A stretch of 40,000 nt of DNA from Candidatus Altimarinota bacterium. GTDB lineage: Bacteria > Patescibacteriota > Gracilibacteria > BD1-5 > JAGOOR01. A program made the translations under genes and the position numbers. The DNA is taken from the NCBI GenBank assembly GCA_023268615.1, contig JALQUC010000026.1, positions 1 to 40,000 on the forward strand, given 5' to 3'. Shown here piece after piece: positions 4,714 to 20,461 of this stretch. Every line of letters begins with the position of its first letter. The stretch's first letter is position 1. The notes under the pieces are model-generated. The model was given only the letters and a program-made list of their open reading frames with translations. It did not search any database and was not told where the DNA came from.

Positions 4714-5499
4714 ATGTACTCCTCTCCTCGCATCATATCCGCGCCCATTTCCAACAATCGTCTCAACTGGGATGAGCGAGAGAATCACACTATCATAGTA
4801 CCGAGTCTCATAGAGTGAGCTCTGGATGATGTCATCATAGGAACAGAAACAGTGATAGAGTGAGAGGTACATGGGAAGATAACAGCAGGCAAATGATTGA
4901 AGCATTTTGTTTTCCTGAGAAGTTCGCGTGTCCCCACATGGATCATTGATAATCACAATCACGCCTTCGCATTCTGGCACGAAGCATATTGGAAATGATA
5001 TATCCAGAAGTGAGCTCTCCTCGTGCATATCGATCAACACACTGATCTCGCCACACCGGGCAATTTCCCTGCCTGGAAACACCCTGAAGAAAGTCATGAA
5101 GGTATCGTCGAAGAATACACAAATACGGATCTGACTATCGCAGACTTCATCGTCCCCGCTCTCGCAACGGGCCTCATCTCTGAAGCGGTCATGGTGACGG
5201 GTGAAGATATGCACACCTCACGAAGCTTCGTTTGGGAAGATAAAAAAGAAGAAATAAAAAAGAAGAAAGACGGATTCTCTATAAATTCCCCCTCCACTTC
5301 TACGCCTACTTCTCTCATCCTGGATATTGATCTCGATTATTTCTCACAGGGATTCGACGAATTGAAATGCTTCGAAAATGTTCGATACTGGATAGAAAAA
5401 GCAGATATCATCACGATAGCGACAAGCCCTCTCTTTATCGACCAAGAGAAAGCTATTAGCGTGCTAAAAAGCTTGCAAAAGTCACTCGTGACTCTATAA
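4714..5499 (+). CDS. UPF0489-like (arginase/deacetylase-fold-like) protein
   Basis: Extending track ORF 5023..5499 upstream through four TGA gives ATG 4714. Motifs WIIDNHNHAFAFW, LVHIDQHTDL, LDIDLDYF. TAA stop. Confidence 0.6.
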
Positions 5500-5534
5500 T
5501 CGCCTCACCGTTACGGAGAAGTAAATCCTTTGTG

Positions 5535-5559
5535 TTTTCTGTTACTTTTTACTTTTTCT
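5535..5559 (+). repeat. pyrimidine-rich motif TTTTCTGTTACTTTTTACTTTTTCT (copy 1)
   Basis: Near-identical to 38126-38150. Lies 20-45 nt upstream of tRNA-Cys. Confidence 0.8.
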
Positions 5560-7594
5560 ATTCGCTTTCAGCGAATCTGGCGCCTTGGTAGAACGGTCAT
5601 ACAGGAGCCTGCAAAGCTCTGGAAGCCGGTTCGACTCCGGCAGGTGCCTCCAATACTGCATTTTCTCCAAAAAGTACCTGTCTCACAGGTCATAAAAGCT
5701 CTATTTCAAGGGCTTTTTTCTTTTTAATTTTGAGTTCGAAAGTCGTCAGCATGATCAATTCATAAATATCTTCTCTCAAAATTCTATTTTCACCATTTGT
5801 AAGCAATTTTTCAGAGAGTTCGAAAGTTTTTCTGAGGATATTGGGTATTCTCTCTAGAAATATCTGAGAATCTTTTTGATTCATCAAGTTCTCAATTTTG
5901 TTATTTATTTCTGCAATTCTCTTTTTTCCTTCTTCTATTTGTTCTTTTATAACATCTTCCATTCCTTCAATACTTCCTGATTTAAGAAAATTGGTCATCA
6001 TTAGTTTACTCTGTTCTTCTATTTTGTGCTTCTGAGATTCCAAGTCTTTTAGTAAAGCTTCCTGCCCTTTTCGAACATCTTGAGTGCTTGTCATAAAAAT
6101 TTTTGTAATGTTCTCCTGCAGAAGACCAATCATGCTGACAAAATTTCTTCAAATCCATCACACCAATGTGTACCAATCGCTAATTTGTTTCTCTAAATCA
6201 TCATCATTACTGCACTTGGCACCTAAAAATAATACTCATTTTTCTTTTACGGGATCTAATCATTCAAAATCTAAAGTAGATCATTCAAAGAGTCTTTCTA
6301 GAATTCATGAAATATCGTCAGGATTTTTTATATCTATTTTTAATTCATTTTTCTCAAAAGGTAGTCTAAACGCCACTTCAATTCCTGAAGATGTAGCATG
6401 ATTAAAAAGAAGTTTTTCAATTGCTAATATAAATTTAGAGCCTTTCAACCCCCGATCTGCAAAAAGCTCATTTACTTTAATTCAGATAATTTTTTTAACT
6501 ATTGCACCTCTTAAGAAACTCATAAATTCTTCAATAAGCCATTTCTCAGAGACATGAATCCCCTCTACTGTATTCTTATATTGGGATGTTCATTTTTGTG
6601 TATATCATGACAGTCTTCGACCATTCTCGGTCCGTAGAACACTTCTTAAGTGATATTTTTCCTGTTGGAGACCGTAGCTACCTTTTTTCTTACCCTTATT
6701 ATTCTGTACTCACTGCCAAAGAGCCATAGGAATTGGTGTTTCACACTCAAAAAATTGGAGATTTGAAAAAGATATTCATGTATTTTTTTCTGTATATTCA
6801 CCAATATAAACCTTGTTACTAAAAAGCCGATCATTCAATTCTCGTTCTCATAGTTTTATACCCCCAACCTCCTGTAAGTACTTTGATATTTCTTTGTGTG
6901 TGATCCCCACCATCTTCATCTCAAAAGCTTTAATGATAAAAGGCATTTTATTGTTTTGTTTTAGGATTCTTCTACCTTCATGAATAATATGCCCAAGACC
7001 TTTTGGTGCTGCATACGGAAATTCTCAATTTTCAAGCTTTAAAAGAATTCATCCGATTGATTTTCTCCTAGTATCTAAACTATCATAGTATCCGGCAGAA
7101 AATTTCTTATGTACTTCTTCCTTGTCTGTCTCTTTTGTAATCTCTTCTGTCCCCTCCATGTTAATATAAATGATCTTTTCGATAGTTTGTCTTTGCTTAT
7201 TGTCTCAATAAAGCATATTCATTATGGTCTGTGTATCTGTTGGATTCCTTGAGAGACGGGAAAGATCTCTTGTAAGCAAAATACAGGGGCTTTTTTCTTT
7301 ATTTATTTCTTCTATCATCTTTGTCCATTCTTTTCGTTTTTTATTCTCAAATCCACTAAAAGTCTCACCAAAGACCCTGACTTTCTCTTTTTCAAATTTT
7401 AAGCGTTTTACTATACTGCCTATTCCATCTTCTTGTTGTATAAGGGATTCGCGTTGTTCCTCTTTGTTAGTACTTCTTCTGAGATAAGCAAAAATAGAGG
7501 TATCCTTTGATAAGCTCTTATTCTGTTGGCCGCCATGGGAAGGAGGTCCTTGATATACAATAACTTTATTAAATATACTTTGTGACGATTGCAT
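5558..7594 (-). CDS. large serine recombinase (integrase/transposase type)
   Basis: One continuous frame (checked codon by codon) from ATG 7594. It has the catalytic region IFAYLRRSTNKEEQ, LLTRDLSRLSRN, a recombinase domain (GYYDSLDTRRKSIGGILLKLENGEFPYAAPKGLG) and a Lys/Glu-rich coiled-coil C-terminus. About 20 in-frame TGA. After TGA 5690-5692 the frame runs antisense through tRNA-Cys to TAG 5558-5560. Confidence 0.85.
5579..5652 (+). tRNA. tRNA-Cys (anticodon GCA)
   Basis: Cloverleaf by hand: acceptor GGCGCCT/AGGTGCC, anticodon stem GGAGC/GCTCT with loop CTGCAAA, T-arm GCCGG-TTCGACT-CCGGC, discriminator T, encoded CCA. Close to the E. coli tRNA-Cys layout. Confidence 0.9.
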
Positions 7595-7595
7595 A

Positions 7596-7673
7596 GTGGC
7601 GATTATTATTTAGTGGTAAATTATTCTCAACTCTTCCCCCGCTTCCAATCGCCACGAAAGAAAGGGGGAGAAG
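7596..7673 (-). promoter_or_regulatory. 5' leader hairpin abutting the recombinase start codon
   Basis: In mRNA sense: CTTCTCCCCC...GTGGCGATT-(42 nt)-AATCGCCAC-T-ATG. The 9-bp stem ends 1 nt before the ATG. An upstream C-tract can alternatively pair with the loop segment GGGGGAAGAG. Confidence 0.4.
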
Positions 7674-7770
7674 AATAGAGGATAAAATATCAACTTCTTC
7701 CATTCAACAATTCCAAAGTAATAAATTAGCTTTTATATTCAAGTTTTATTTTGTACAAGCGGTTTTTGGT

Positions 7771-7798
7771 GTTTGTGTTTTCTTAAGAAAACACAAAC
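7771..7798. repeat. perfect 28-bp palindrome GTTTGTGTTTTC-TTAA-GAAAACACAAAC
   Basis: Self-complementary over all 28 nt. Sits between the nuclease gene end (7970) and the recombinase start (7594). Confidence 0.9.
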
Positions 7799-7969
7799 TA
7801 TCCAAAACTATATAAAAGTAGTCTTTAGATGTATTGTGTACCAGTCCTGAAGATAAAATTAAAACACTCACTAATCCAATTCTAAAAAGGGAATAGTGGT
7901 CTTTAGAAAATCTTTTATATTTTAGTCTCTGCCCCACTTTCTGTTCAAAAATTTCTATTTGTCCAGCAT

Positions 7970-9190
7970 TTAATTACAAATTGATTCACAAGGTATGCCA
8001 TCTGAATCAGAATCGAGCCGAGTAAGACCGCAAGAGTTAAGATAGTATTTTGCCTCTTCGCAGGTTATCATTTGTGTGCAATAAGTCTTGGCTCCGCAAG
8101 TGTAGGAAGATGAGGGAGGAGGTGTAGTAGGAGGCGTATAGATTGGGGTTGTTATAGGTGTGCTGATTTTTACTTCATCTTTGGTCCCTTTTTTCCTGTC
8201 GCCTGCACATGTCGAAGCAGACCAAAGTCCGAGTTGAGCGTTTTTAGCCATCAGCTCTGCCTCTTTATTCTCTTTCTGATAGGTGTACGCGGTGTTATAG
8301 GTGTATTCGAAGGCGTAACCATCCAAAATCATTTTCGTATTGATATTGGTCCCGTTATAGAAGATATAGGCGAGTGTACGGCCATATTTGTCTGTTTCTC
8401 CTTGGGTTGAATCCTTCTCAATAGTGAGTTCCTTTGCATCTTTTAAGAGCATTTTTAAGTGTTCTGATGCTTCTTTGCCGAAACATTCTACATAACCATA
8501 ACGGGATGTTGTAGATTCAGGTGCATCTAAGCCGATCATTCGTATTTTGAGGTTGCCATAATTGACTGTGTCACCATCAACAACAGTAATGAGATTAGTA
8601 CCGCTCAACGAAACAATTTGTCGAGCAAAACCAAACACTTCTGCACGAGTGGCAAAACGATTTGGAAAGAATTTGTAGTAAGTATCAGAAATATACTGAA
8701 CTCACGGTATTTCAATATCAGAATTACGAATTTTTACAAAAAGGTCCTTTTGCCACTCAGTCACATCTTTATCAGCTGGAACAAGAGCATCATATTCCTT
8801 TGTAGGTGAGAGGTTGGATGCTTTATAGAGTATAGAGAACGCTTCTGCTCGTGTGATAGAGTCTTGAGGTCGTGCTTTTGTGTTGCTTCTAGAGATAAGT
8901 TCATTATCACTTGCTAATTCTATGGCACGGCAAACCCAATCTTGTTTTACAGTATCAGAGAAGTATTTTTTGCAGTTATAGCCCTCAGGAAGACTTACGC
9001 CTTTGATTTTAAGGGCTATTCCTATGACTTCTGCCCGTGTAATCCTATCATCTAATCTATACCCTGTTTCTGATGACTGTAATGTTATGATGCCTTTTTC
9101 TCCAAGAAAGACTGCATTTGATAAATCTGAACTAGTGTAGGCAATACCTAAAAAGGGAATCAACAGGGTCAAAAAGAACACTTTTTTCAT
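7970..9190 (-). CDS. secreted SLH-repeat / staphylococcal-nuclease (SNase) / Excalibur-domain nuclease
   Basis: Track ORFs 8702..9190 and 7970..8638 share a frame across TGA 8702-8704. Signal peptide MKKVFFLTLLIPFLGIAYT. Three SLH-like repeats (ITRAEVIGIA, ITRAEAFSIL, ATRAEVFGFA). SNase core VVDGDTV..IRMIGLDAPE..GRTLAYI. Pro/Thr linker, then a C-terminal DSDSDGIPCE motif. Confidence 0.8.
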
Positions 9191-9222
9191 AATAGAAAAA
9201 TAATGATAAACCTTTTGCTTTT

Positions 9223-9251
9223 AAAAAAAAGCACGCTCGGAAAGTGCGTGC
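9223..9251 (-). terminator. rho-independent terminator (minus strand)
   Basis: Minus-strand read: GCACGC-actttccga-GCGTGC followed by T8. Confidence 0.7.
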
Positions 9252-9260
9252 CAAAATATA

Positions 9261-9427
9261 TTTAGTGTTTTGCTGGCGAAACAAAAAGGGAGGATCAATC
9301 CCCTTCGATTCGCCAGAATCTTACTCATTTAGTGTCATAGACAATAAAAGAGGCAGGGATATAATCCCCCCTTTCGATTGTCTATAAATAACACTAAAAA
9401 AGTAAGTAAAATAAATAAGATTCTGGC
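9261..9427 (-). ncRNA. candidate structured RNA: two related hairpin units nested in longer inverted repeats
   Basis: Unit 1: CTGGCGAA(9273-9280)/TTCGCCAG(9309-9316). Unit 2: ATAGACAAT(9337-9345)/ATTGTCTAT(9377-9385). The stems differ but the loops are similar (..AAAAG.GG.AGGGAT..AATCCCC..TTCGA). Outer pairs are TTTAGTGT/ACACTAAA and GCCAGAATCTTA/TAAGATTCTGGC. Strand inferred from the adjacent minus-strand terminator. Confidence 0.4.
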
Positions 9428-9500
9428 TACAATAGCTTATTCAAAAAACTACTTTTACAAGGAAGTCGAATAATCTAATGAATTGTCTTGGACAGAGTAA

Positions 9501-9968
9501 CTACTTCATAACCTTCAATAAAGAGGAAAATGGTGTGAAATTCTTAGGAATACTCTGCAAATCTGGGAAAAAGCGATGATATGTTGCGGGGTTGTTTAGT
9601 CTCGTTTTTCATAGTTTTTTAGCCAACTGGCTCTTTATTGAGACATGTTTAGGTTTCTCTCCGAGAAATTTAAGAAAGTCGGATTCAAAATTCGGAGAAT
9701 TAGAAATGACTATGATTCATTTCGCTTTGGCCAATTTCAAAGCAGCAGTGGTTTCAGGTCTATCTGAATCAATCCAAACATAAATTTCATCATATCATTC
9801 ACCATTTACTATGGCTTTTCGAACAATTTCCAATGGAGATCAGCCATATCAGTTTTTAATATAAATCTTCTTACCACATCATCTTCAACAAAGTGACCTA
9901 AAATGCTTAGCACATTCGCACTCATCATCTCATTCACAATAAAGAAGTGTGGTTGTGTTTTTCCCCAT
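9501..9968 (-). CDS. RloB-like TOPRIM-type protein
   Basis: MGKNTTTLLYCEGDDECECAKHF...YDEIYVWIDSDRPETTAALKLAKAKGIIVISNSPNFESDFLKFLG matches the RloB pattern (CEGxxxE, YDEvw.v.D.D, SNPcFE). Eight in-frame TGA. Starts 6 nt after the ATPase stop. TAG stop at 9501-9503. Confidence 0.8.
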
Positions 9969-9973
9969 AAATA

Positions 9974-11152
9974 CTAATCAAAAACAGGTTTAGCACCATA
10001 TACCCCTGCCATATATTTTGCATAGTAATTATCATCAGATCTGACAGTAACCCCCTCGATCTGATCTAATCTATCTAGTGACGAAACTCAATTTTTATCT
10101 TTTTCAACAAAGAAGATTTGATATTTATTCAATCGGTTAAGTACTCTTGGATTTTGTGTAGTAAAAATAAGTTGAGCATTATCAGGATTATTTTTTTTAC
10201 TTTGATAGTAGTCCATGATTTTATCAACAAATTCAGGATGAAAATTTGAATCCAACTCATCAAAGACCAGAACACCTCATTTTTTGAGTGTTTCAGCCAT
10301 CATATAGGCATAATCAATCAGCTTAAGACTTCCATCTGAATAATAAGGTACAATGTGTGTTTTCCCATCAATATGTACCTCTCCCTTTGCCTCCATTTGT
10401 TTCTCGCCATTAGGACTAATAGATTCTTCAACTTTCAAATGTAAACCAGTTGGATCAAATTGATGCAAAATATCATTCAAGAAATCTAAATCTTCCTTAT
10501 TTTGAACATATCTAGTTAATGCAGTTACTCTATTCATATCAAAACTCGACTGATTTAGGCCACCCATTGGCAAGATCCGGGTATAAACAGTCGCCCAAAA
10601 ATCAATAATATCTAGTGCATTCACATCCATCAACCTACTTTTCACAAACAAAATACTCGCATTTGATCGTAAAAATGGTAATTCGCTCGAGGTCAAATCG
10701 GATAGACTAAAGAGTTTTTTCCAGGTTACTCTTTCTTCAGTTTTTGATCGAATAAAAATCGCTTCTGAGACTGCAAATCATTTTTTCAGCTTTAATTCGA
10801 TTTTATAGACAGACTTTTTTGTCTCAAAAACACATTCAAAATGCTGATCTGCATTATCTGCAAATGTGTATGGTATACATCTGTACTTTATTGAACTATC
10901 AGATACTGGGGTTTCTGGTGCTAATCTCCATGCATCAACTATCCAATACTGTAAAAATGCAATGCCCCGTAGTAAATTTGATTTCCCTGAGGCATTTGGG
11001 CCTATTATTGTTGCAACTTTGGAAACCTTTACATTAGGAAGCTTCGAATTAGCGAGTGTGTCATCGCTATTATCCTTTCTGGCCCAAGTAAGATCAAAGT
11101 TATTATCCTTTTTGAAAGAGGCTATGTTGGAAAATTTGAATGAGTGTATCAT
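9974..11152 (-). CDS. AAA_21/ABC-type ATPase (abortive-infection-type)
   Basis: Walker A IIGPNASGKSNLL, signature-like YYSDGSLKL, Walker B GVLVFDELDSNFHPEF, then LIFTTQNP and a C-terminal YGAKP. Track fragments 10778..11152 and 10277..10696 join through TGA. TAG stop at 9974-9976. Confidence 0.85.
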
Positions 11153-11532
11153 GTTTATATTTATAGAAGTGCTGTCATCTTATTCATTTTTCTCTATGTG
11201 TCAATAATAAAGCAATATATTATTACTTTTGTAGATTTTCTGTGAAAATACGACATGTAGGTGTATATTTAATATACTCCATTCGAAAAATTGTTTTGCA
11301 AAAAAAATTCTTCATATATAATAACTGTACTACTTCCTAACAAAGCTCCTATGTGCTTCTGATGAAAATAAAAAACTCTAGGTCAAACAAATCGTTTAGA
11401 TCTGCTATTCCAAGAGTTTTCGAGTAACAAAAACCGGACAGGCTTTGTTACCAACAAATATATTAGTTTTAGGAAGAATAGCAAATTATTATACAACACT
11501 CTTCGTGTTGTCTACTTCCTAACCCTTCTCGT

Positions 11533-11637
11533 ATGGCATACCGCTATCGTGATTCTGGGTCTGGTCAATTCATCAGCAAACCATCTGCTGATCGTAGGAA
11601 CCCAGATACCGTTGAACGCGAACGAATAAAGAAATAA
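11533..11637 (+). CDS. small conserved-looking peptide (34 aa)
   Basis: MAYRYRDSGSGQFISKPSADRRNPDTVERERIKK. TAA stop, followed about 20 nt later by a strong terminator. The pattern YR-x3-SG-x-F-x-S...P-x-T-V recalls a widespread family of small uncharacterised proteins (from memory, not searched). Confidence 0.5.
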   Translation: MAYRYRDSGSGQFISKPSADRRNPDTVERERIKK

Positions 11638-11659
11638 TCTCTTCTGAAATTTCTTTTTC

Positions 11660-11690
11660 ACCGACAGTACTCTTGCTGTCGGTTTTTATT
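11660..11690 (+). terminator. rho-independent terminator
   Basis: ACCGACAG-tactcttg-CTGTCGGT followed by TTTTTATTT. Confidence 0.75.
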
Positions 11691-11957
11691 TACTTTCTGC
11701 TCAACTCGAAACCTCTCTTGGAGATATACCTAACCCTGTTGTGCCTATAGTGAAAGGGAAACATCGGGGACACGGCTGAATATGATGTTAACCAAAAACA
11801 TTTTTCTGCCTCTCTTTGAAAATCCTCTTCTGCCTTGAAATAAATACTTTTTCACTATTCTCTACATAAGTTCGAAGATTGGTACCCCTTAAGACCTCCA
11901 TTTGACAATTATTATAAAACACTATATTGCTAGTGTTTTATTTTAAAAATTAGATTT

Positions 11958-12683
11958 ATGAATTTTCCTGAAGATATAAGCCTAAAATCAAAATCTATTG
12001 TTCGAAAAGTTGACGGAAAACCTGTAACAATAGAAGTAAAAATACATCCAAGTACTCACAGAAAAGTGGTTGTAATAAATTATCCTGGGGTTTATGGAGA
12101 TATAGATGGCTTTAACAGTAAATACACCAAAATTGCTGGTCTAGTTGCTGAAAAGATAGGAACAACTCTTCGTATCTCGTGAGCAGAAGAAACACTCTGA
12201 GAAGAATTTGAGAGCGGTGTATCTAAAAAACTTGAAGCTGTGATTAAGGATGCTCTGCAAAATTCACAAGAACTAGCTGAATGCGAACCCAATGAACTAG
12301 AAATATATTTGATGGGGTTTTCAACCTGAGCATCTTGAGTTGCTGCTGTTTGTGGTAAATACCCCCAAATTAAAAAAATACTTCTTATTGCACCATCTTG
12401 AGATGCTTGAGAAGAAGCATGTGAAAGTTCTTTGGGCTCTTTTACTTGAGAAGTGCATGTTTTAGTTGGCGAAAATGATGAAGTAGTTGGATGAAAAGCA
12501 GCTCATATTTTTGCTCAAATGGCTAAGTCAGCAAAAAGAGTGAAAGAACTGACAATTCCCAATTGTGACCATCAATTCAGATGAAGCAAGAATGGTCAAC
12601 TGATGAGCGCTGCACCAATATGGGCTTTTTTGAAGAATGGCGAAGGAGAATTAGATCCCAATGATGGTATTATAATCTACTAG
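11958..12683 (+). CDS. alpha/beta-fold hydrolase
   Basis: Frame open 11958-12683 through nine TGA. Nucleophile elbow G-F-S-T-(TGA)-A with TGA 12327-12329 at the second Gly of GxSxG. Later ..NCDHQF (His). TAG stop. Confidence 0.7.
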
Positions 12684-12857
12684 ATCATCTCTCATCCAAA
12701 AAAATCGCTTAAGCTGAGAAATTTTTATCTGTTTTTCCACTATTAATGAATATTCCTCGAATTCAACGGAATTTAAAAAATGCCATCTTAAAATCTTTTG
12801 TATTGCAATAAATACCTTTTCGCTATGCTCTCCTTGTATCATTAAATTAAAAGAATT

Positions 12858-13334
12858 ATGCCCAATCCTACCGTCACACTCCACACCAATCATGGTGATA
12901 TCACGCTCGAGGTCTTCGCGGACAAAGTCCCAAAGACAGCAAAAAATTTCGTAGAGCTCGCAAAGAAGGGCTACTACGATGGGACAATATTTCACCGCGT
13001 TATTCAGGACTTCATGATCCAGGGTGGTGATCCTACTGGCACAGGTCGTGGTGGTGAGAGTATCTATGGTGAAAAATTTGAAGATGAATTTCATCCTGAA
13101 CTGTCACACAAAAAAGGCTATATCTCTATGGCAAATGCTGGACCAAATACCAATGGGAGTCAGTTTTTCATCGTCCACGCTGAGGAAACAACTTGGCTCG
13201 ATGGCAAGCATAGCGTCTTCTGACAGGTCGTCACAGGCATGGAAGTCATCGAAACAATAGCGACAGTCCCGACTGATAGTGGTGATAAACCGTTTAAAAA
13301 AGTAGAGATTACCCGGACAACAATTGTTGAATAA
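12858..13334 (+). CDS. ppiB: cyclophilin-type peptidyl-prolyl cis-trans isomerase
   Basis: [49 protein letters not shown]-(TGA 13221-13223)-QVV where cyclophilins have ..VFG.V. TAA stop at 13332-13334. Confidence 0.9.
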
Positions 13335-14070: not shown

Positions 14071-15339
14071 ATGAATAGCTTTTACGATGCATCCAAAGAA
14101 GATGCCTCTGCCTTTGCAGGACGAGTCTGTCGAGAAAGCTGGAATAATTCTCGTTTTGTACAAGTAAACTCCGACTCAGAACACTTCCGTTCCAAGAGAA
14201 GGTGGACCTATCAAAACCTCCCGCTGTCTCTCTACCCAGATGATATTCGTGCAATAATTCAGAAGCATGGGTGAGCCTACTTCTGAAAGAGTGCTTACTC
14301 ACAAACAGGTGGACCAGATGGAATAGGCACAGCCGTAGAATTTGCCAATGTGCTCCAGGAATATCGTACTATGGCATTCAATCTCATAGCTATGTCAGCA
14401 GATGATGTCGCAGCTGGATGAGATTTACCCCTAGTGTACACCGATGTTATTGATTACAAACAACTGAAAAGCAAAAAACAAAAAACTGCTTACGCACACC
14501 TCTTTGAAGGTCTAGGCAAAGCAGCCAGAGAAAATGACTTTATTATCCTCACAGGAGAAAGTGCGGGACTGAGTCATTGTGTCAGCAGTTCTAATCCTGA
14601 TGCACTCTTCCCATTTAATTGGTCAGGAACCATGAATGGAGTATCTCACCCCAGCCTTCAAATCAATGGCGAAAATATAGCTGCGGGGGACTATATTATT
14701 GCACTCGAACAGCCGTGATTTGCGACCAATGGTATCAGCAAGGTACGGGAAGCGTTCGCACGCAAGTATGGACCTATGTGGTTTCGTGATGCACCTCGAG
14801 AAGAAGTAGAACAGGCTATGGCGGCACCTATCATCTATGCGCGGGCATTATCGGAAGTAAATGGATGGTATTCAGATTGAGAAAAAAGGGTGGAAATGGG
14901 CAGTATCAGTCACCTCTCTGGAGGCAGCATGAAATCAAAATTTCTCGATGATCTCTTAGCTCCCCGTGGTCTTTCAGCAAGACTCAATAATCTCTTTGTC
15001 ATACCCGAAATCACCCGAAAAGCTGTTGAATGGCTCACACTTCACTTTGATAGTTTGGAAACTGCACAGATATATGGTCAAGACAAGAGAGATGGAACCC
15101 CTATGAGCATGCAGGAATTATTCACGACATGGTGTTGTGGTCAGAGAATGTTTATCACGGTAAAGACAGAAAAGGAAGCTCACAGATTAGTAGCGGAATT
15201 CTCTCGTTTGAAAATAGGTTCTCAGTTAGCAGGAGAAATCATTACTACATCCAAGAGTGATACACCTCATCTGGAAGTCACTGCGAGATTTGAATGATGA
15301 AAAGGGAAAGTGGTCCGAGTAGAATCAGGGAATAATTAA
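14071..15339 (+). CDS. purM: phosphoribosylformylglycinamidine cyclo-ligase (AIR synthase)-like
   Basis: Three track ORFs (14071.., 14434.., 14890..) share one frame, joined by TGA. GGPDGIGTAVEFA, NLIAMSADDVAAGGDLPL, ILTGESAG, TNGISKVRE, HLSGGS. TAA stop at 15337-15339. Confidence 0.7.
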
Positions 15340-15356
15340 ATACTTAACTTCTGAGT

Positions 15357-18300
15357 ATGTCTCTTACTTCACCATCTTCTGCAACCGAAACTCTGTGAGA
15401 ACGAGCCAAACTCCGTGAAGTATACATCCAGAAAAAGTGAAGGCATGATCATGTATCACATGGTCTCACAAAAATCATCCAAGAAGAACTCCAGATCTCA
15501 TGAGTCATAGCAGAGGTGTATGATAAATATTATGTGCAGGGTAATGAAGAAAATGGTCTCAGTGATGCGGAGTATGAACTGGCAAGAAAAACAATTTTCG
15601 CCGAGTTACCACTCGAAAACACCTACGAAAAGAATGATTTTTATGGAAGGGTCTGAGATGTAGAAATGATTGACATTGCTGATGTAGCAGGACAGTTTAG
15701 TGCACGGACTGACTCTGTCGAGAAGAGTCTCCTCGCTCAGACCGGGAGAGATTTCACCGGGAAAGCGAAGAGTAATCATGTGATTGTCCTCAGAGGAGAT
15801 GTGACACCTGCAGTGAGACAAAAAATTCATGACTGGATGATCAATCCTGTCGAAAAAGTCGAACAAAAGAGAGATGATATACTCTTTCCTGATCCAGAGA
15901 AGAGTCCAGAGAATTATCGAATATTGGATCGATGTGCCGCAGAATTGGACGACAAAGGTAATCCAACACGATACGAAGAATTCAACAAGCTCTCTCAAGA
16001 TGAGTACAGAGTTTTTGCGAAACACGGTGGCATCTCTCTCGAGGTCGATGATTTTCTCGAGGTCCAGAAATACTTCAGAGGAGAATGACGCAATCCGACA
16101 TTTACCGAACTCAAACTCATCGAGACCTACTGGTCCGATCACTGTCGACATACGACATTTCATACGGCTATCAAGTCTGTAGCTATTGAGGGAAACTCCC
16201 CGGCAATAGTAAAAGATATCAAACAGACAGAAAGACTCTTCGAAAAGACCCTGGGAGATCAAGAAAAAACTCTGATGAATCTGGCACAGGCAGGTTTGAA
16301 AAAAATAAAAAAAGATGCAAAATTGTGAAAGAAAAGAAAAGAATACGAATCTCTCGAAAACAATGCGTGCTCCTATGAAACAGAAATAGAAAATGAAAAA
16401 GGCGAAAAGGAAACATGGGTCATCATGTTCAAAAATGAGACTCACAATAGTCCCACAGAGACCGAACCATTCGGATGAGCAGCTACCTGTATCGGAGGAT
16501 GTATCCGTGATCCACTGAGCTGATGAACATACACTTTTCAAGCGATGCGCATTTCCGGTTCTGGCAATCCAACAGAACCTATCAGTGAGACCATGGCCGG
16601 TAAACTCTCACAGAAATTTATATCCCTCGTGAGTGCTCTGGGATATTCGAGTTATGGGAATCAGATAGGTCTTGCAACGGGTATGGTGCGTGAATTTTTC
16701 CATCCTGGATACAGAGCAAAGCATCTTGAACTCGGCTATGTCGTCGCCGCTGCACCCAAGTGACACAATAAGCGATCAAAACCAAAAAAGGGCAATATAG
16801 TTCTGATGATTGGTGGGAGAACCGGCCGTGACGGAGAAGGAGGAGCGACAGTATCATCCAATCTGCAAGGTGCACATCATAATAAAAAACAGATGTGAGC
16901 TCATGTGCAGAAATGAAATGCCCCAGAAGAAAGAAAACTCCAACGACTCCTCTTGAATCCAGGGTTTGCTGGGAAAATCATCAAATGTAATGATTTTGGA
17001 GCTGGTGGTGTGTCAGTTGCTGTAGGAGAACTTTCCCGAGGTCTCGATATCGATCTTGATAGAGTAAAAACAAAATATAGTGGCCTCAGCGATACCAGTC
17101 TCGCACACTCTGAATCCCAAGAACGCATGGCAGTCGTCATAAACCCCGATGACTATGAAGAAGCTATGAAGATGATCGAAGCAGAGAATCTCGAAGCAGA
17201 GCAGGTAGCGCGGATTACTGATGAAGAAGAGCCTCAGACAGACCGCCTCAAAATGAACTGGAAAGGTAATACTGTAGTCGATATTTCTCGTGATCTCCTC
17301 GACAGTATGGGTGCGAAAAAAAATCAAGAAAGAGCACTTATCACGGGGAATAAGACCGATTTTTTCAAAACACCAGGAGCATGGCACAAAGAAGACACTT
17401 CTGATAGACTGCTGAGTCATCTCAGACATCTCTGAGTCGCTAGTCAGAAACGACTGGGTTCTCTCTTTGATTCCTCTGTTGGTGCCAGCACTATACTCGC
17501 TCCATATGGAGGAAAATACCAGAATTCCCCGCAGATCGGTATGGCTGCCAAAATTCCTTCTCTGCACAATAATGATGGTCTCGATTTCAAGACAGCAATT
17601 ATCTCAGCATTTGGCGGACATCCACGCCTCTCGGATTCGAATCCATATCTCGCTGGTATGTATGCCGTTATTGATGCGATTTCTCGAACGGTAGCAATGG
17701 GCTGAGATGTGAATCGTGTCTGGCTCACGGCACAAGAATACTTCTGAAAACTGGGCAAAGACGATACTCGTTGGGGCGAAATCTATAGTATCATGCTCGG
17801 ATTTTTCCGAGCACAGATAGAGTTAAAAACTCCTGCAATCGGAGGCAAAGATTCTGCATCAGGAACATATAAAAAAGAACATGGCACTCTGATGCATGTA
17901 CCGACTACACTTTTTTCAATAGCAAATAGTCCAGAGGATAGTGGGCGGATTGTCTCGGCTGAATTTCAGAAGAGTAATAGCCGTGTGCTCTACTTTCGTT
18001 TCCCAAAAGATATGCATGGATTACCAGACTGGGTTTCTTATCGTCGTGTCTTGCGAGATGTCCGGTGACTGCATGACGGTGGTCGTGTGCTCTCATCCAG
18101 TATCGTAGAAGAAGGAGGTGTGGCAGCATCGGTTTCTCGTATGTGTATTGGGAATCGTATATGATTTAGTTGTTATGAAGAGCTGCAATTATCTCATGAT
18201 ATAGGTGGTATTATTCTGGAGGTACCTGAGGACACCGAAATACCCTGGAGTGCCCGTGAGATAGGGAAAACAACAGATAACCAATTCATTACCCTGAAAA

Positions 18301-19313
18301 ACTGAAATCCAGTATTTCTGAATAACATAGATCAGGCACTCTCAGGCACTCTCGATACCGTCTATCCTCCGGATTCAGCTGGTGGGACTGTCGAAGAAAT
18401 CAAACCACATACTCCTCGGGGTGATCCTGATCGCAAACCAATTATTTTTGGTCCCGATGGAACTATAGTGTCTGGTGGTCCTGTAGAAAAAGTAAATATT
18501 CTGACCAAGAAACCAAAAGTTGTGATTCCTGTCTTCCCAGGGACAAACTCAGAACTCGATACCCGCCATGCTCTTCATAAATCAGGATTTACCGATGTAG
18601 AAATATTTGTCTTCAAGACAAAAACTCCAGAAGAACTGACCGCATCCTTCACACAATTTGCACAGCTGATCTGAGAAGCTCAGATGGTCGTCTTACCAGG
18701 GGGATTCTCTGGTGCAGATGAGCCAGGATGATCTGCAAAGTTTGCCAATACTATTCTTCGAAGTCCTAAAGTGCGTGACGCTATGAATGCATTTCTGCAG
18801 AAAGCGGGCACTCTCACTCTGGGTATCTGCAATGGATTTCAGATGCTCATGAAGCTCGGCGTCTTTGAAAAATGAGAAATCTCCGACTTCCAAACTGAGA
18901 CAGATATGACTCTCGCACACAATACCAATGGTCGACATATGACCGATCTGGTGGGACTCAGAGTGACCTCTGTTCTCTCTCCATTTTTCAATACTATTGA
19001 TATTGGAGACACCTTTGTCGTTCCTATTTCTCACGGAGAATGACGAGTGACTTTCAATAATAAGAAACAATTCATGGACCTCCTCGCCAAGTGACAAATT
19101 ATCCTCCAGTATCTCGACGCAGATGGAAGTCCAACCAATGCGTACAACGGTTCAGAGCATGGTGTCGCTGGTATCTGCTCACCTGATGGTCGAATACTGG
19201 GACTCATGCCACACCCTGAGCGATCAGGTCTGAATGTCTTCAAGAATGTCCCGGGCAATAAATATTTCCCAATTTTTGATGGAGCCGCAGAAGCATTTGG
19301 TATAAAAAAGTAA
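15357..19313 (+). CDS. purL: phosphoribosylformylglycinamidine synthase, single-chain large form (PurS-like + PurL + PurQ domains)
   Basis: Six track ORFs all lie in the frame of ATG 15357. TYWSDHCRHTTF, NETHNSPTETEPFG-(TGA 16476-16478)-AATCIGGCIRD, GRDGEGGAT, C-terminal GATase LPGGFSGADE..LGICNGFQ..MPHPER. 1318 codons. TAA stop. Confidence 0.9.
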
Positions 19314-19339
19314 TTTTATTTTTCTCACCTTTCTATGTT

Positions 19340-20461
19340 ATGGGTTACTCTATTTTGGATGCTGACGGTCGTGCGTTCGAATGATCTCTAGAAGGGGCAG
19401 AACAGAAAAATTTTGGAAAAACAAAAAGAATATTTCACTTGCCTAATGGTAATTTTGGTATTTCTCATGAAGATGTTTTAACGGCTTTTGATAATCCGGA
19501 CTTTACAGCTCAAGCACTCGGGAAGTGAACTGTAAGTGCTTACTCTTCTGCAATACTCTTTCGCAGGATTGAGGAGGCCGGGGTCAGAACAACTCACCGA
19601 GGCTTTATCAATAGCAATACAACGGAAGAGTCACCTCTTGAGATGCTTCCATTCGAGATTATCTGGAGACGCTATAATGTCGAGGGAAATAGTTGGGAGC
19701 AGCGAAATCCAAAACAAGTGCCTATTGGACAAAAATATCATTCTATAAAATATGAAGTAGGTCTGAAATGGTCTGTGATAGATGAACAGACGGGCGAAGA
19801 ATGTACTGATCCTTTTATGATGTTGGATGAAAATTTCCAACCCCTGCTTACCTCTCAAGGTCTACCTCGTCTTGTTCACCAAAAAAAAGGCTATGAGATA
19901 ACATATTCTAACATTGTTCATCCAAATAAAAAAGAAAATATTTCACCCGATACACTCCGCACCACTATCGAGCAATACAAACAATATGCTTCCCAAATCC
20001 GTACAATGGCAGAAAAGGTTCAAGAAGTAACTTTTGATACCTACGCTCGGGTCGGCCGACTCAATGCTGATGGGAAAATCGAAGTCGGATTTGATCAGGA
20101 AGGCAACCTAACGCTTGGCGATGAACTTGAGCTTGATGCACTCAGAAATGTATCTCTCTCAAAATTTGAAATAGATGGTCAAGAATATGAATTCGACGAG
20201 GATGCTCTCGGTCATAATCTCCATAATATTCTTAAGAGAAATGCATGAGATATAGACCGTATCATACTGGCTCGACATTCTGGGAAACAAGCATACAGAG
20301 ATTTAGTGAAACCCTGGGGGAATTTCCCAATGTCAGAGACGAGAAAAGCTGCTAATAATCTCGCAGGATATGAGGTCACAAATGGTATTTATTTACCGAC
20401 TGCTCAGGCACTTTCTCGGAGATTTGGTCAAGAGGTGGGGTATATACTTCGGGCGGCTTAA
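19340..20461 (+). CDS. purC: SAICAR synthase-like protein (long, divergent)
   Basis: Frame extended upstream of track ORF 19643..20248 to ATG 19340 and downstream through TGA to TAA 20459-20461. LPFEIIWRRYNVEGNSW and NADGKIEVGFD..LTLGDEL resemble PurC motifs. Follows purL directly. Confidence 0.55.

Follow-up and report, generated by a model that had tools for sequence, protein, structure and literature searches.

A probable integrative element at the tRNA-Cys gene of a UGA-recoded Gracilibacteria genome, with its attachment site inside the gene of its own large serine recombinase

The window analysed here is the first 40,000 nucleotides of contig C24 (C24:1-40000) in a genome of 966 kb and 44 contigs, and the subject of this text is a segment within it, at 5653-11900, that begins directly after the CCA end of a tRNA-Cys gene and carries the gene (int) of a large serine recombinase (LSR). 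The tRNA-Cys(GCA) gene, found by ARAGORN and Rfam at 5579-5652 on the plus strand, has its CCA encoded and is the single tRNA-Cys gene in the whole genome; an Rfam scan of 5400-13000 gave nothing besides it. On the opposite strand lies the open reading frame (ORF) 5558-7594, which has 678 amino acids and 17 in-frame TGA codons in translation table 25. It reads antisense through the entire tRNA-Cys gene and stops at the TAG at 5558-5560, as had been observed in a first-pass annotation made from the letters of the window. The features on which the argument depends, including the attachment (att) sites and their arms, are the following.

5558..7594, minus strand: integrated-form LSR ORF, 678 amino acids, of which 5653-7594 belongs to the element and 5558-5652 comes from the host (antisense tRNA and a further 21 nt upstream)
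5579..5652, plus strand: tRNA-Cys(GCA), the sole tRNA-Cys gene; B arm of attB/attL; identical in same-genus relatives
5647..5652: attL core CCTCCA, made up of the two final acceptor bases, the discriminator and the CCA
5676..5690: P-arm hairpin ACCTGT-CTC-ACAGGT within the 3' end of int, overlapping the first base of the TGA codon 5690-5692
11788..11898, minus strand: orphaned native int 3' end, 36 codons and TAA; P' arm of attP, with TTCGAAC
11895..11900: attR core CCTCCA
11901..11944, plus strand: B' arm, the displaced sequence 3' of tRNA-Cys with its terminator hairpin, matching the empty site of genome G007 (contig L026)

The frame across the tRNA depends on the genetic code. A tRNA(UCA) gene adjoins tRNA-Gly(GCC) in the genome, and in an alignment of homologues TGA (shown as W in table-4 translations) alternates with GGN glycine codons at conserved glycine columns, so TGA is read as glycine (code 25). 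The TGA at 5690-5692, already taken as sense by the first-pass annotation, is thus codon G635, and a second one (G666) falls within the antisense tRNA. The same annotation gave the protein a tail of 44 codons running over the tRNA. The frame does continue past the TGA to the TAG, but only 31 codons (5558-5652) are host-derived, and the 13 codons that follow 5690-5692 are the element's own and conserved in the family. The 647 element-borne codons of int contain no TAA or TAG and 16 in-frame TGA codons read as glycine; since the genes of the element use in-frame TGA, the element is adapted to code 25, a point on which the annotation was right. It had also described the segment as AT-rich, and the composition bears this out: the guanine and cytosine (GC) content of 5653-11900 is 0.3475 against a genome mean of 0.414 (standard deviation 0.019), and with none of 1,452 same-length genome windows as low it is the lowest-GC 6.25-kb stretch of the genome. 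GC stays at about 0.33-0.35 across 5.6-12.8 kb, with a local rise over the nuclease gene.

The recombinase itself is recognised partly by profile and partly by fold. The PF00239 resolvase catalytic domain is matched at residues 35-130 (E-value 3.7e-11) and is the only Pfam domain found in int. Y37, R39, S41 and Q47 are invariant in 18 homologues, which gives a motif of the Y-x-R-x-S-x(5)-Q type with its nucleophilic serine. An AlphaFold2 model built on these 18 homologues matches the full-length SPbeta, PhiC31 and Bxb1 integrases (Foldseek E-values 2e-10 to 2e-7). The model of a free-form homologue (mean predicted local distance difference test score, pLDDT, of 75) superposes on the SPbeta integrase with a VIA Z of 13.0 and a root-mean-square deviation of 20.1 over 434 aligned residues; the alignment covers 22-616 of the model and 8-537 of the chain, and ends shortly before the att junction. 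Long paired helices over residues 464-600 form a long coiled coil in the models, and the C-terminal architecture as modelled is that of an LSR, with a recombinase domain and a zinc-ribbon domain bearing a coiled coil. The Pfam recombinase-domain and zinc-ribbon models give no match in int, and the zinc-ribbon region is free of cysteines (there are none in regions 300-350 and 600-640 of P0001). On the modelled fold, the window protein is a divergent large serine recombinase.

The ends of the segment can be placed by comparison with related genomes. Five genomes of the same genus lack the recombinase (G013, G008, G007, G004 and G017), and show the order UPF0489, tRNA-Cys, a terminator hairpin directly after the CCA, 2.4-4.4 kb of differing DNA, and cyclophilin, followed in four of the five by the histidyl-tRNA synthetase gene (HisRS). 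Their tRNA-Cys is 100% identical to that of the window over 76 nt, and the recombinase is present in only part of the relatives. The occupied sites (the window, G014, L002 and G038) diverge right after ...GGTGCCTCCA, which ends in CCTCCA. In the window CCTCCA occurs again at 11895-11900, where it is followed by TTTGACA... and a hairpin (AAAACACTA/TAGTGTTTT); this flank and hairpin correspond to the sequence directly 3' of tRNA-Cys in the G007 empty site. The core and the displaced terminator at 11895-11944 therefore delimit an element of 6,248 bp (5653-11900) with a 6-bp core, CCTCCA, at its ends, and the crossover is inferred to lie within this core. The attL and attR sites so defined look like hybrids of the empty site and the free-form attP around a very short core, as with other LSRs. 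The comparison upholds the insertion beside tRNA-Cys that the first-pass annotation had proposed and moves the right end it had put at about 11.7 kb to 11900. Its remark that no att repeats were visible by eye holds for long repeats, but the 6-bp core and the displaced terminator at 11901-11944 do exist. No displaced tRNA-Cys fragment or long direct repeat was found at the far end, and genome-wide there is no piece of the tRNA longer than the 6-bp core. The signature of Islander-type islands, an intact tRNA with a displaced tRNA fragment and an integrase of the tyrosine family, is thus absent: 6 bp are repeated at attR, and the recombinase is of the serine type. The reconstructed attP contains a GGTAC/GTACC dyad, which was rejected as a symmetry axis because its centre lies outside the core and other subfamilies do not conserve it. 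The hairpin at 5676-5690 keeps its pairing in L002 through a compensatory change; read in the sense of int, it is followed by a T-run and then, about 20 nt further on, by the core.

When position 11900 is joined to 5653, as at the junction of an excised circle, int stays in frame for 36 further codons to a TAA at 11788-11790, giving a protein of 684 amino acids. The first 26 residues of this tail (EVLRGTNLRTYVENSEKVF...) are 65% identical to the C-terminus of the homologue P0008 (tblastn E-value 5e-9), and the orphan tail at attR is intact, in frame and has its own stop codon. Two kinds of C-terminus are found among the homologues. Close homologues, all of them from TGA-recoded organisms, end in LEAP[S/A]GVEP..., the peptide that results when a tRNA's CCA, acceptor stem and T-arm are translated antisense, and the distance from the conserved KKELKIKLF strand to this tail is constant. 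In one pair, P0003 and P0004, the bodies are nearly identical and the tails differ from the acceptor stem on; the tRNA part is therefore host DNA and the junction lies at the tRNA 3' end. P0008, P0012 and P0016 carry instead a tail that is not tRNA-derived and has the form E[VA]L...RTF[IV]EN.... These free-form homologues lie on contigs L033, L034 and L035, where the native tail is contiguous with int and there is no tRNA on the contig. The cargo of the three contigs comprises a weak match to a DNA-packaging gp3-like protein (on L035) together with Bro-N, DUF5681, helicase and DNA methylase genes (all four on L034) and an S8 peptidase. L034 (8,520 nt) and L035 (3,670 nt), both Logan contigs, have terminal direct overlaps of 30 nt and are apparently circular; Logan contigs are assembled with k=31, for which a 30-nt overlap is what a circular contig would show. 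The orphan tail at attR and the contiguous tail of the free-form homologues both place attP within the int ORF. It is this position of attP that strands the native C-terminus at the opposite end of the element and makes the ORF run into the tRNA, and the antisense-tRNA tail is a by-product of integration. At attR, the junction (11899-11901) also creates an ATG directly before the orphan 36-codon tail, and other elements have ATG or TTG there, so that a free 37-amino-acid peptide could in principle be made.

The same layout recurs in other genomes. On contigs L029, L031, L036 and L038 int overlaps tRNA-Cys antisense, an orphan tail lies 5-10 kb upstream on the same strand, and the host flanks at attR are terminator hairpins resembling those of the empty sites. 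TGGAGG (in the sense of int) is common to every att site examined in the tRNA-Cys elements. Relatives whose metagenome-assembled genomes are titled Candidatus Gracilibacteria or, in a few cases, Peribacteria have the same geometry at tRNA-Thr(GGT), Val(TAC), Arg(GCG) and Arg(CCT), and in most of these an orphan ...RTFIENYDR... fragment lies a few kb upstream; related LSRs ending within antisense tRNA-Thr, Val and Arg genes were noted on L030, L032 and L050-L055. An exhaustive HMMER search of 1.84 billion cluster representatives returned only 171 relatives, and a scan of IMG/VR two distant ones. Among family proteins that include the C-terminus, 30 have clear antisense-tRNA tails and at least seven a native tail, while about nine more look, judged by eye, like antisense readings of other tRNAs. 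A 97%-identical copy with the same layout occurs in another sample. In the searches made, the family is confined to code-25 Gracilibacteria, and across the sequences compared the attP-in-int arrangement is a family-wide layout and not a local accident.

Taken together, 5653-11900 is very probably an integrative element inserted by its own LSR at the tRNA-Cys 3' end (CCTCCA), with attP inside the int ORF. In the free circle the int ORF would cross attP just after the last element of the canonical LSR fold and end 36 codons later in the conserved, predicted helical tail. The attB site would be the tRNA 3' end with its terminator, and recombination of attP with attB would regenerate an intact tRNA, carry the terminator and the native tail of 36 codons over to attR at the far side, and join what remains of int to the tRNA's antisense strand. 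Since UGA is glycine and neither TAA nor TAG occurs in the antisense frame, the fused ORF stays open across the whole tRNA as far as the TAG at 5558-5560. The integrated isoform keeps the full catalytic and DNA-binding fold, going by the models, and is probably still active; its activity may differ from that of the free isoform, and the window copy may still be able to move. Several points weigh against this interpretation. The attR flank differs by one base from attB of G007, and the evidence for circularity of L034 and L035 consists of their terminal overlaps alone. The element holds no recognisable directionality factor, replication or transfer gene, nor any packaging gene, and no accessory gene that could be a directionality factor was found to be shared between the window's small ORFs and other elements. 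The reconstructed attP junction has no match in IMG/VR and Joint Genome Institute (JGI) metagenome contigs, and the reconstructed empty attB, the same-strain empty site, has none in JGI contigs. Moreover, the 0.96 kb past attR (11901-12857) is AT-rich and absent from the locus in relatives, so the accessory region is composite.

Some of these points would also fit a fossil, that is, a segment once inserted by the integrase and now fixed, in which the int ORF, tRNA-fused tail included, survives as a relic with no function. The missing replication, packaging, transfer and directionality-factor genes speak for it, as does the failure to find a circle junction or a same-strain empty site in viral and JGI metagenome collections, although these null junction searches in themselves neither support nor refute mobility. 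Remnants do persist at this locus, as a degenerate older tail copy at 12794-12848 shows, and G007 has a tail-like remnant 2.5 kb from tRNA-Cys and no recombinase. Against this, int is intact over its 647 element-borne codons and the orphan tail has kept its frame and stop; the layout is also that of the 97%-identical copy from another sample, and the apparently circular relatives of 3.6-8.5 kb show that such small elements exist in a free state. On balance a fossil is unlikely.

Another reading adds to the probable integrative element a function for the exchange of tails: the native helical tail and the tRNA-derived tail would confer different activity or stability on the integrase, so that the state of the element sets the direction of recombination. 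Here the evidence lies in what constrains the tail. The amino acids of ENYDR[VI] are kept through synonymous changes, across subfamilies that target different tRNAs, which indicates selection on the protein. AlphaFold2 predicts a helix for the native tail of P0016 (residues 629-646, pLDDT about 80-85) and disorder for the tRNA-derived tail of the window protein (pLDDT below 30). There is also a precedent in the IntP integrase of the myxophage Mx8, for which integration gives int a new 3' end and leaves an active enzyme of modified specificity, according to a paper (PMC6070905) that cites Tojo 1996 and Magrini 1999. The conservation of the tail is, however, partly at the DNA level, as would be expected of an attP arm. 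The arginine codon in N-L-R-T-F is CGA in 15 of 15 copies, compared with 23% CGA among the arginine codons of the window's genes, and this invariant CGA forms TTCGAAC, a motif of the antisense T-loop. Counted from the core, TTCGAAC occupies positions 26-31 in the P' arm and 19-24 in the tRNA arm, an offset of 7 bp, and so looks like a candidate DNA recognition motif whose spacing differs between attP and attB, in line with the LSR model. Nor does the canonical LSR fold need the tail to be complete: known LSR structures align only to about residue 616, so that the swap costs the protein an additional C-terminal helix but not its core fold. On balance a functional swap seems doubtful. More speculative again, and rather improbable as it stands, is the generalisation that a Gracilibacteria LSR superfamily recognises the CCA/acceptor/T-loop end of tRNAs and that the rewriting of the C-terminus provides state-dependent control of direction with no separate directionality factor. 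That the overlap of recombinase and tRNA is a conserved host arrangement, for example a domesticated and immobile recombinase that plays a part at the tRNA locus, is highly improbable: the overlap does recur in many Gracilibacteria genomes, but five same-genus genomes have the identical tRNA and no recombinase, each genome has a cargo of its own between int and the orphan tail, free forms with no tRNA exist, and the base composition departs from that of the genome.

The genes and features that the probable element carries from int to the orphan tail are given below; the cargo agrees with the nuclease, the ATPase and TOPRIM pair and the small peptide gene listed by the first-pass annotation.

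7746..7937, minus strand: 63-amino-acid ORF upstream of int, no family match
7970..9190, minus strand: surface-anchored nuclease, with a weak SLH-like N-terminus, SNase core and Excalibur Ca-binding tail
9191..9500, minus strand: hairpin-rich intergenic region between the nuclease and RloB genes
9501..9968, minus strand: RloB-like (TOPRIM) protein, weak match (Pfam RloB 25.4 bits, cut-off 31.5)
9974..11152, minus strand: AAA_21 ATPase (PADLOC AbiLi PDLC02335, E-value 4.9e-61; Pfam AAA_21, E-value 2.8e-24)
11269..11499, minus strand: 76-amino-acid ORF, no family match
11533..11637, plus strand: 34-amino-acid basic peptide ORF, followed by a terminator-like hairpin at 11661-11690

The nuclease has 406 amino acids and an N-terminal module that is common to many host proteins. 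Part of the intergenic region (9274-9479) has a counterpart in the L002 element with 89% identity, whereas elsewhere the two elements are at most 66% identical; this conserved part has no Rfam family match. The ATPase is of the AbiLi type known from AbiL systems, and the RloB-like gene has no PADLOC AbiLii match. In relatives the space between int and the orphan tail is filled by a different cargo each time: type I restriction-modification with a Schlafen-like gene, S8 peptidases, a UvrD helicase with an RHS giant protein, or phage-like genes. An SNase-domain gene is also present in the L052 element, so that nuclease cargo recurs. Integration removed the terminator of tRNA-Cys, and any read-through from the tRNA promoter would, from 5653 onward, be antisense to the int 3' end.

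Beyond attR lie three further features.

11958..12683, plus strand: alpha/beta hydrolase gene outside the element; AT-rich, older accessory DNA
12794..12848, minus strand: degenerate second copy of int-tail DNA, perhaps a fossil attR left by an earlier insertion
12858..13334, plus strand: cyclophilin peptidyl-prolyl isomerase, the first conserved host gene on the right flank (Pfam E-value 5e-58)

The hydrolase gene was not found at the tRNA-Cys locus in relatives. The degenerate tail copy, just upstream of cyclophilin and partly shared with G013, is 82% identical to 11826-11863 over 38 nt and has weak peptide similarity to the tail; the locus has therefore probably been used before. The remnant in G007 is a native-tail-like fragment at 7408-7491 of L026 (..NVRNFAENYDRIMVSR..), which suggests a decayed element that has lost int. 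A minus-strand ORF at 12651-13211 (186 amino acids) was considered as a host marker and set aside as an antisense shadow of cyclophilin; long spurious antisense ORFs are common in this genome because it has only two stop codons. Further to the right, a purine-synthesis cluster (AIRS-like, purL-like and purC-like genes, 14071-20461) lies between an ORF at 13.4-14.0 kb and HisRS, and in G013, G008, G007 and G017 the equivalents of that ORF adjoin HisRS with no pur genes between.

Unidirectional DNA insertion is done mainly with serine integrases as tools, and the members of the family described here target the CCA ends of five or more different tRNA genes. With its natural pair of isoforms, free and integrated, the control of recombination direction becomes directly testable. 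The mobile DNA of Gracilibacteria is, to our knowledge, barely charted, and these findings point to small elements (3.6-10 kb) that move defence and surface-enzyme genes among ultra-small, UGA-recoded members of the group. In the annotation of code-25 genomes, an antisense ORF that spans a tRNA can be what an integration has left behind, and is not necessarily an error or a new gene.

Among known systems, the integrases of PhiC31, Bxb1, A118/LI and SPbeta share with the window enzyme the resolvase-type catalytic domain and the Y-x-R-x-S serine motif, and those of SPbeta, PhiC31 and Bxb1 also the full-length fold with its long coiled coil; LSRs of phages and integrative elements likewise leave a very short core and no long direct repeats between attL and attR. 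Unlike PhiC31, Bxb1, A118 and SPbeta, the window LSR appears to target the CCA end of a tRNA and to have attP inside its own ORF, and it lacks a match to the Pfam recombinase and zinc-ribbon domains, its zinc-ribbon region being cysteine-free. The cargo resembles AbiL and RloA-RloB modules in that an ATPase of the AAA_21 family matching AbiLi precedes a small RloB-like gene in the same operon; unlike AbiL, the RloB-like match is below the Pfam cut-off and there is no AbiLii match in PADLOC. A serine recombinase with a tRNA gene as attB is also found in the filamentous phage phiRSM, whose Int is a small enzyme of the resolvase/invertase type that uses tRNA-Ser, with an attP that is a 13-base match to the tRNA-Ser gene located between two genes (PMC4471427); the window enzyme, by contrast, is large and its attP lies within the integrase ORF. 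The authors of Islander state that serine integrases are not known to target tRNA genes (PMC4383910), and a survey of prophages in Gracilibacteria and Absconditabacteria makes no mention of a tRNA-spanning int arrangement (PMC10746230). A literature search of limited reach found no precedent for tRNA-targeting LSRs or for a serine integrase with attP inside int.

The closest parallels for the position of attP come from tyrosine recombinases, whose chemistry is not that of the window enzyme with its serine recombinase fold and motif. In Mx8 IntP, again going by PMC6070905, attP is within the 3' part of int, and integration gives a recombinant int with a new C-terminus and does not inactivate the integrase, as proposed for the window; the difference is that Mx8 IntP is a tyrosine recombinase, while the window enzyme is a serine recombinase whose new tail is antisense tRNA. 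The "suicidal" integrases of the SSV type, from archaeal viruses and plasmids, are tyrosine recombinases described as exclusive to archaea (PMC8371274). They resemble the window system in having the att site inside the int gene, a tRNA gene as target and a compact int-att module, but the SSV-type gene is split into inactive halves, whereas the window int loses only its last 36 codons, beyond the canonical fold. The attP-in-int arrangement is thus known for tyrosine integrases (Mx8, SSV), and within the limited literature searched its occurrence in bacterial serine integrases is new here.

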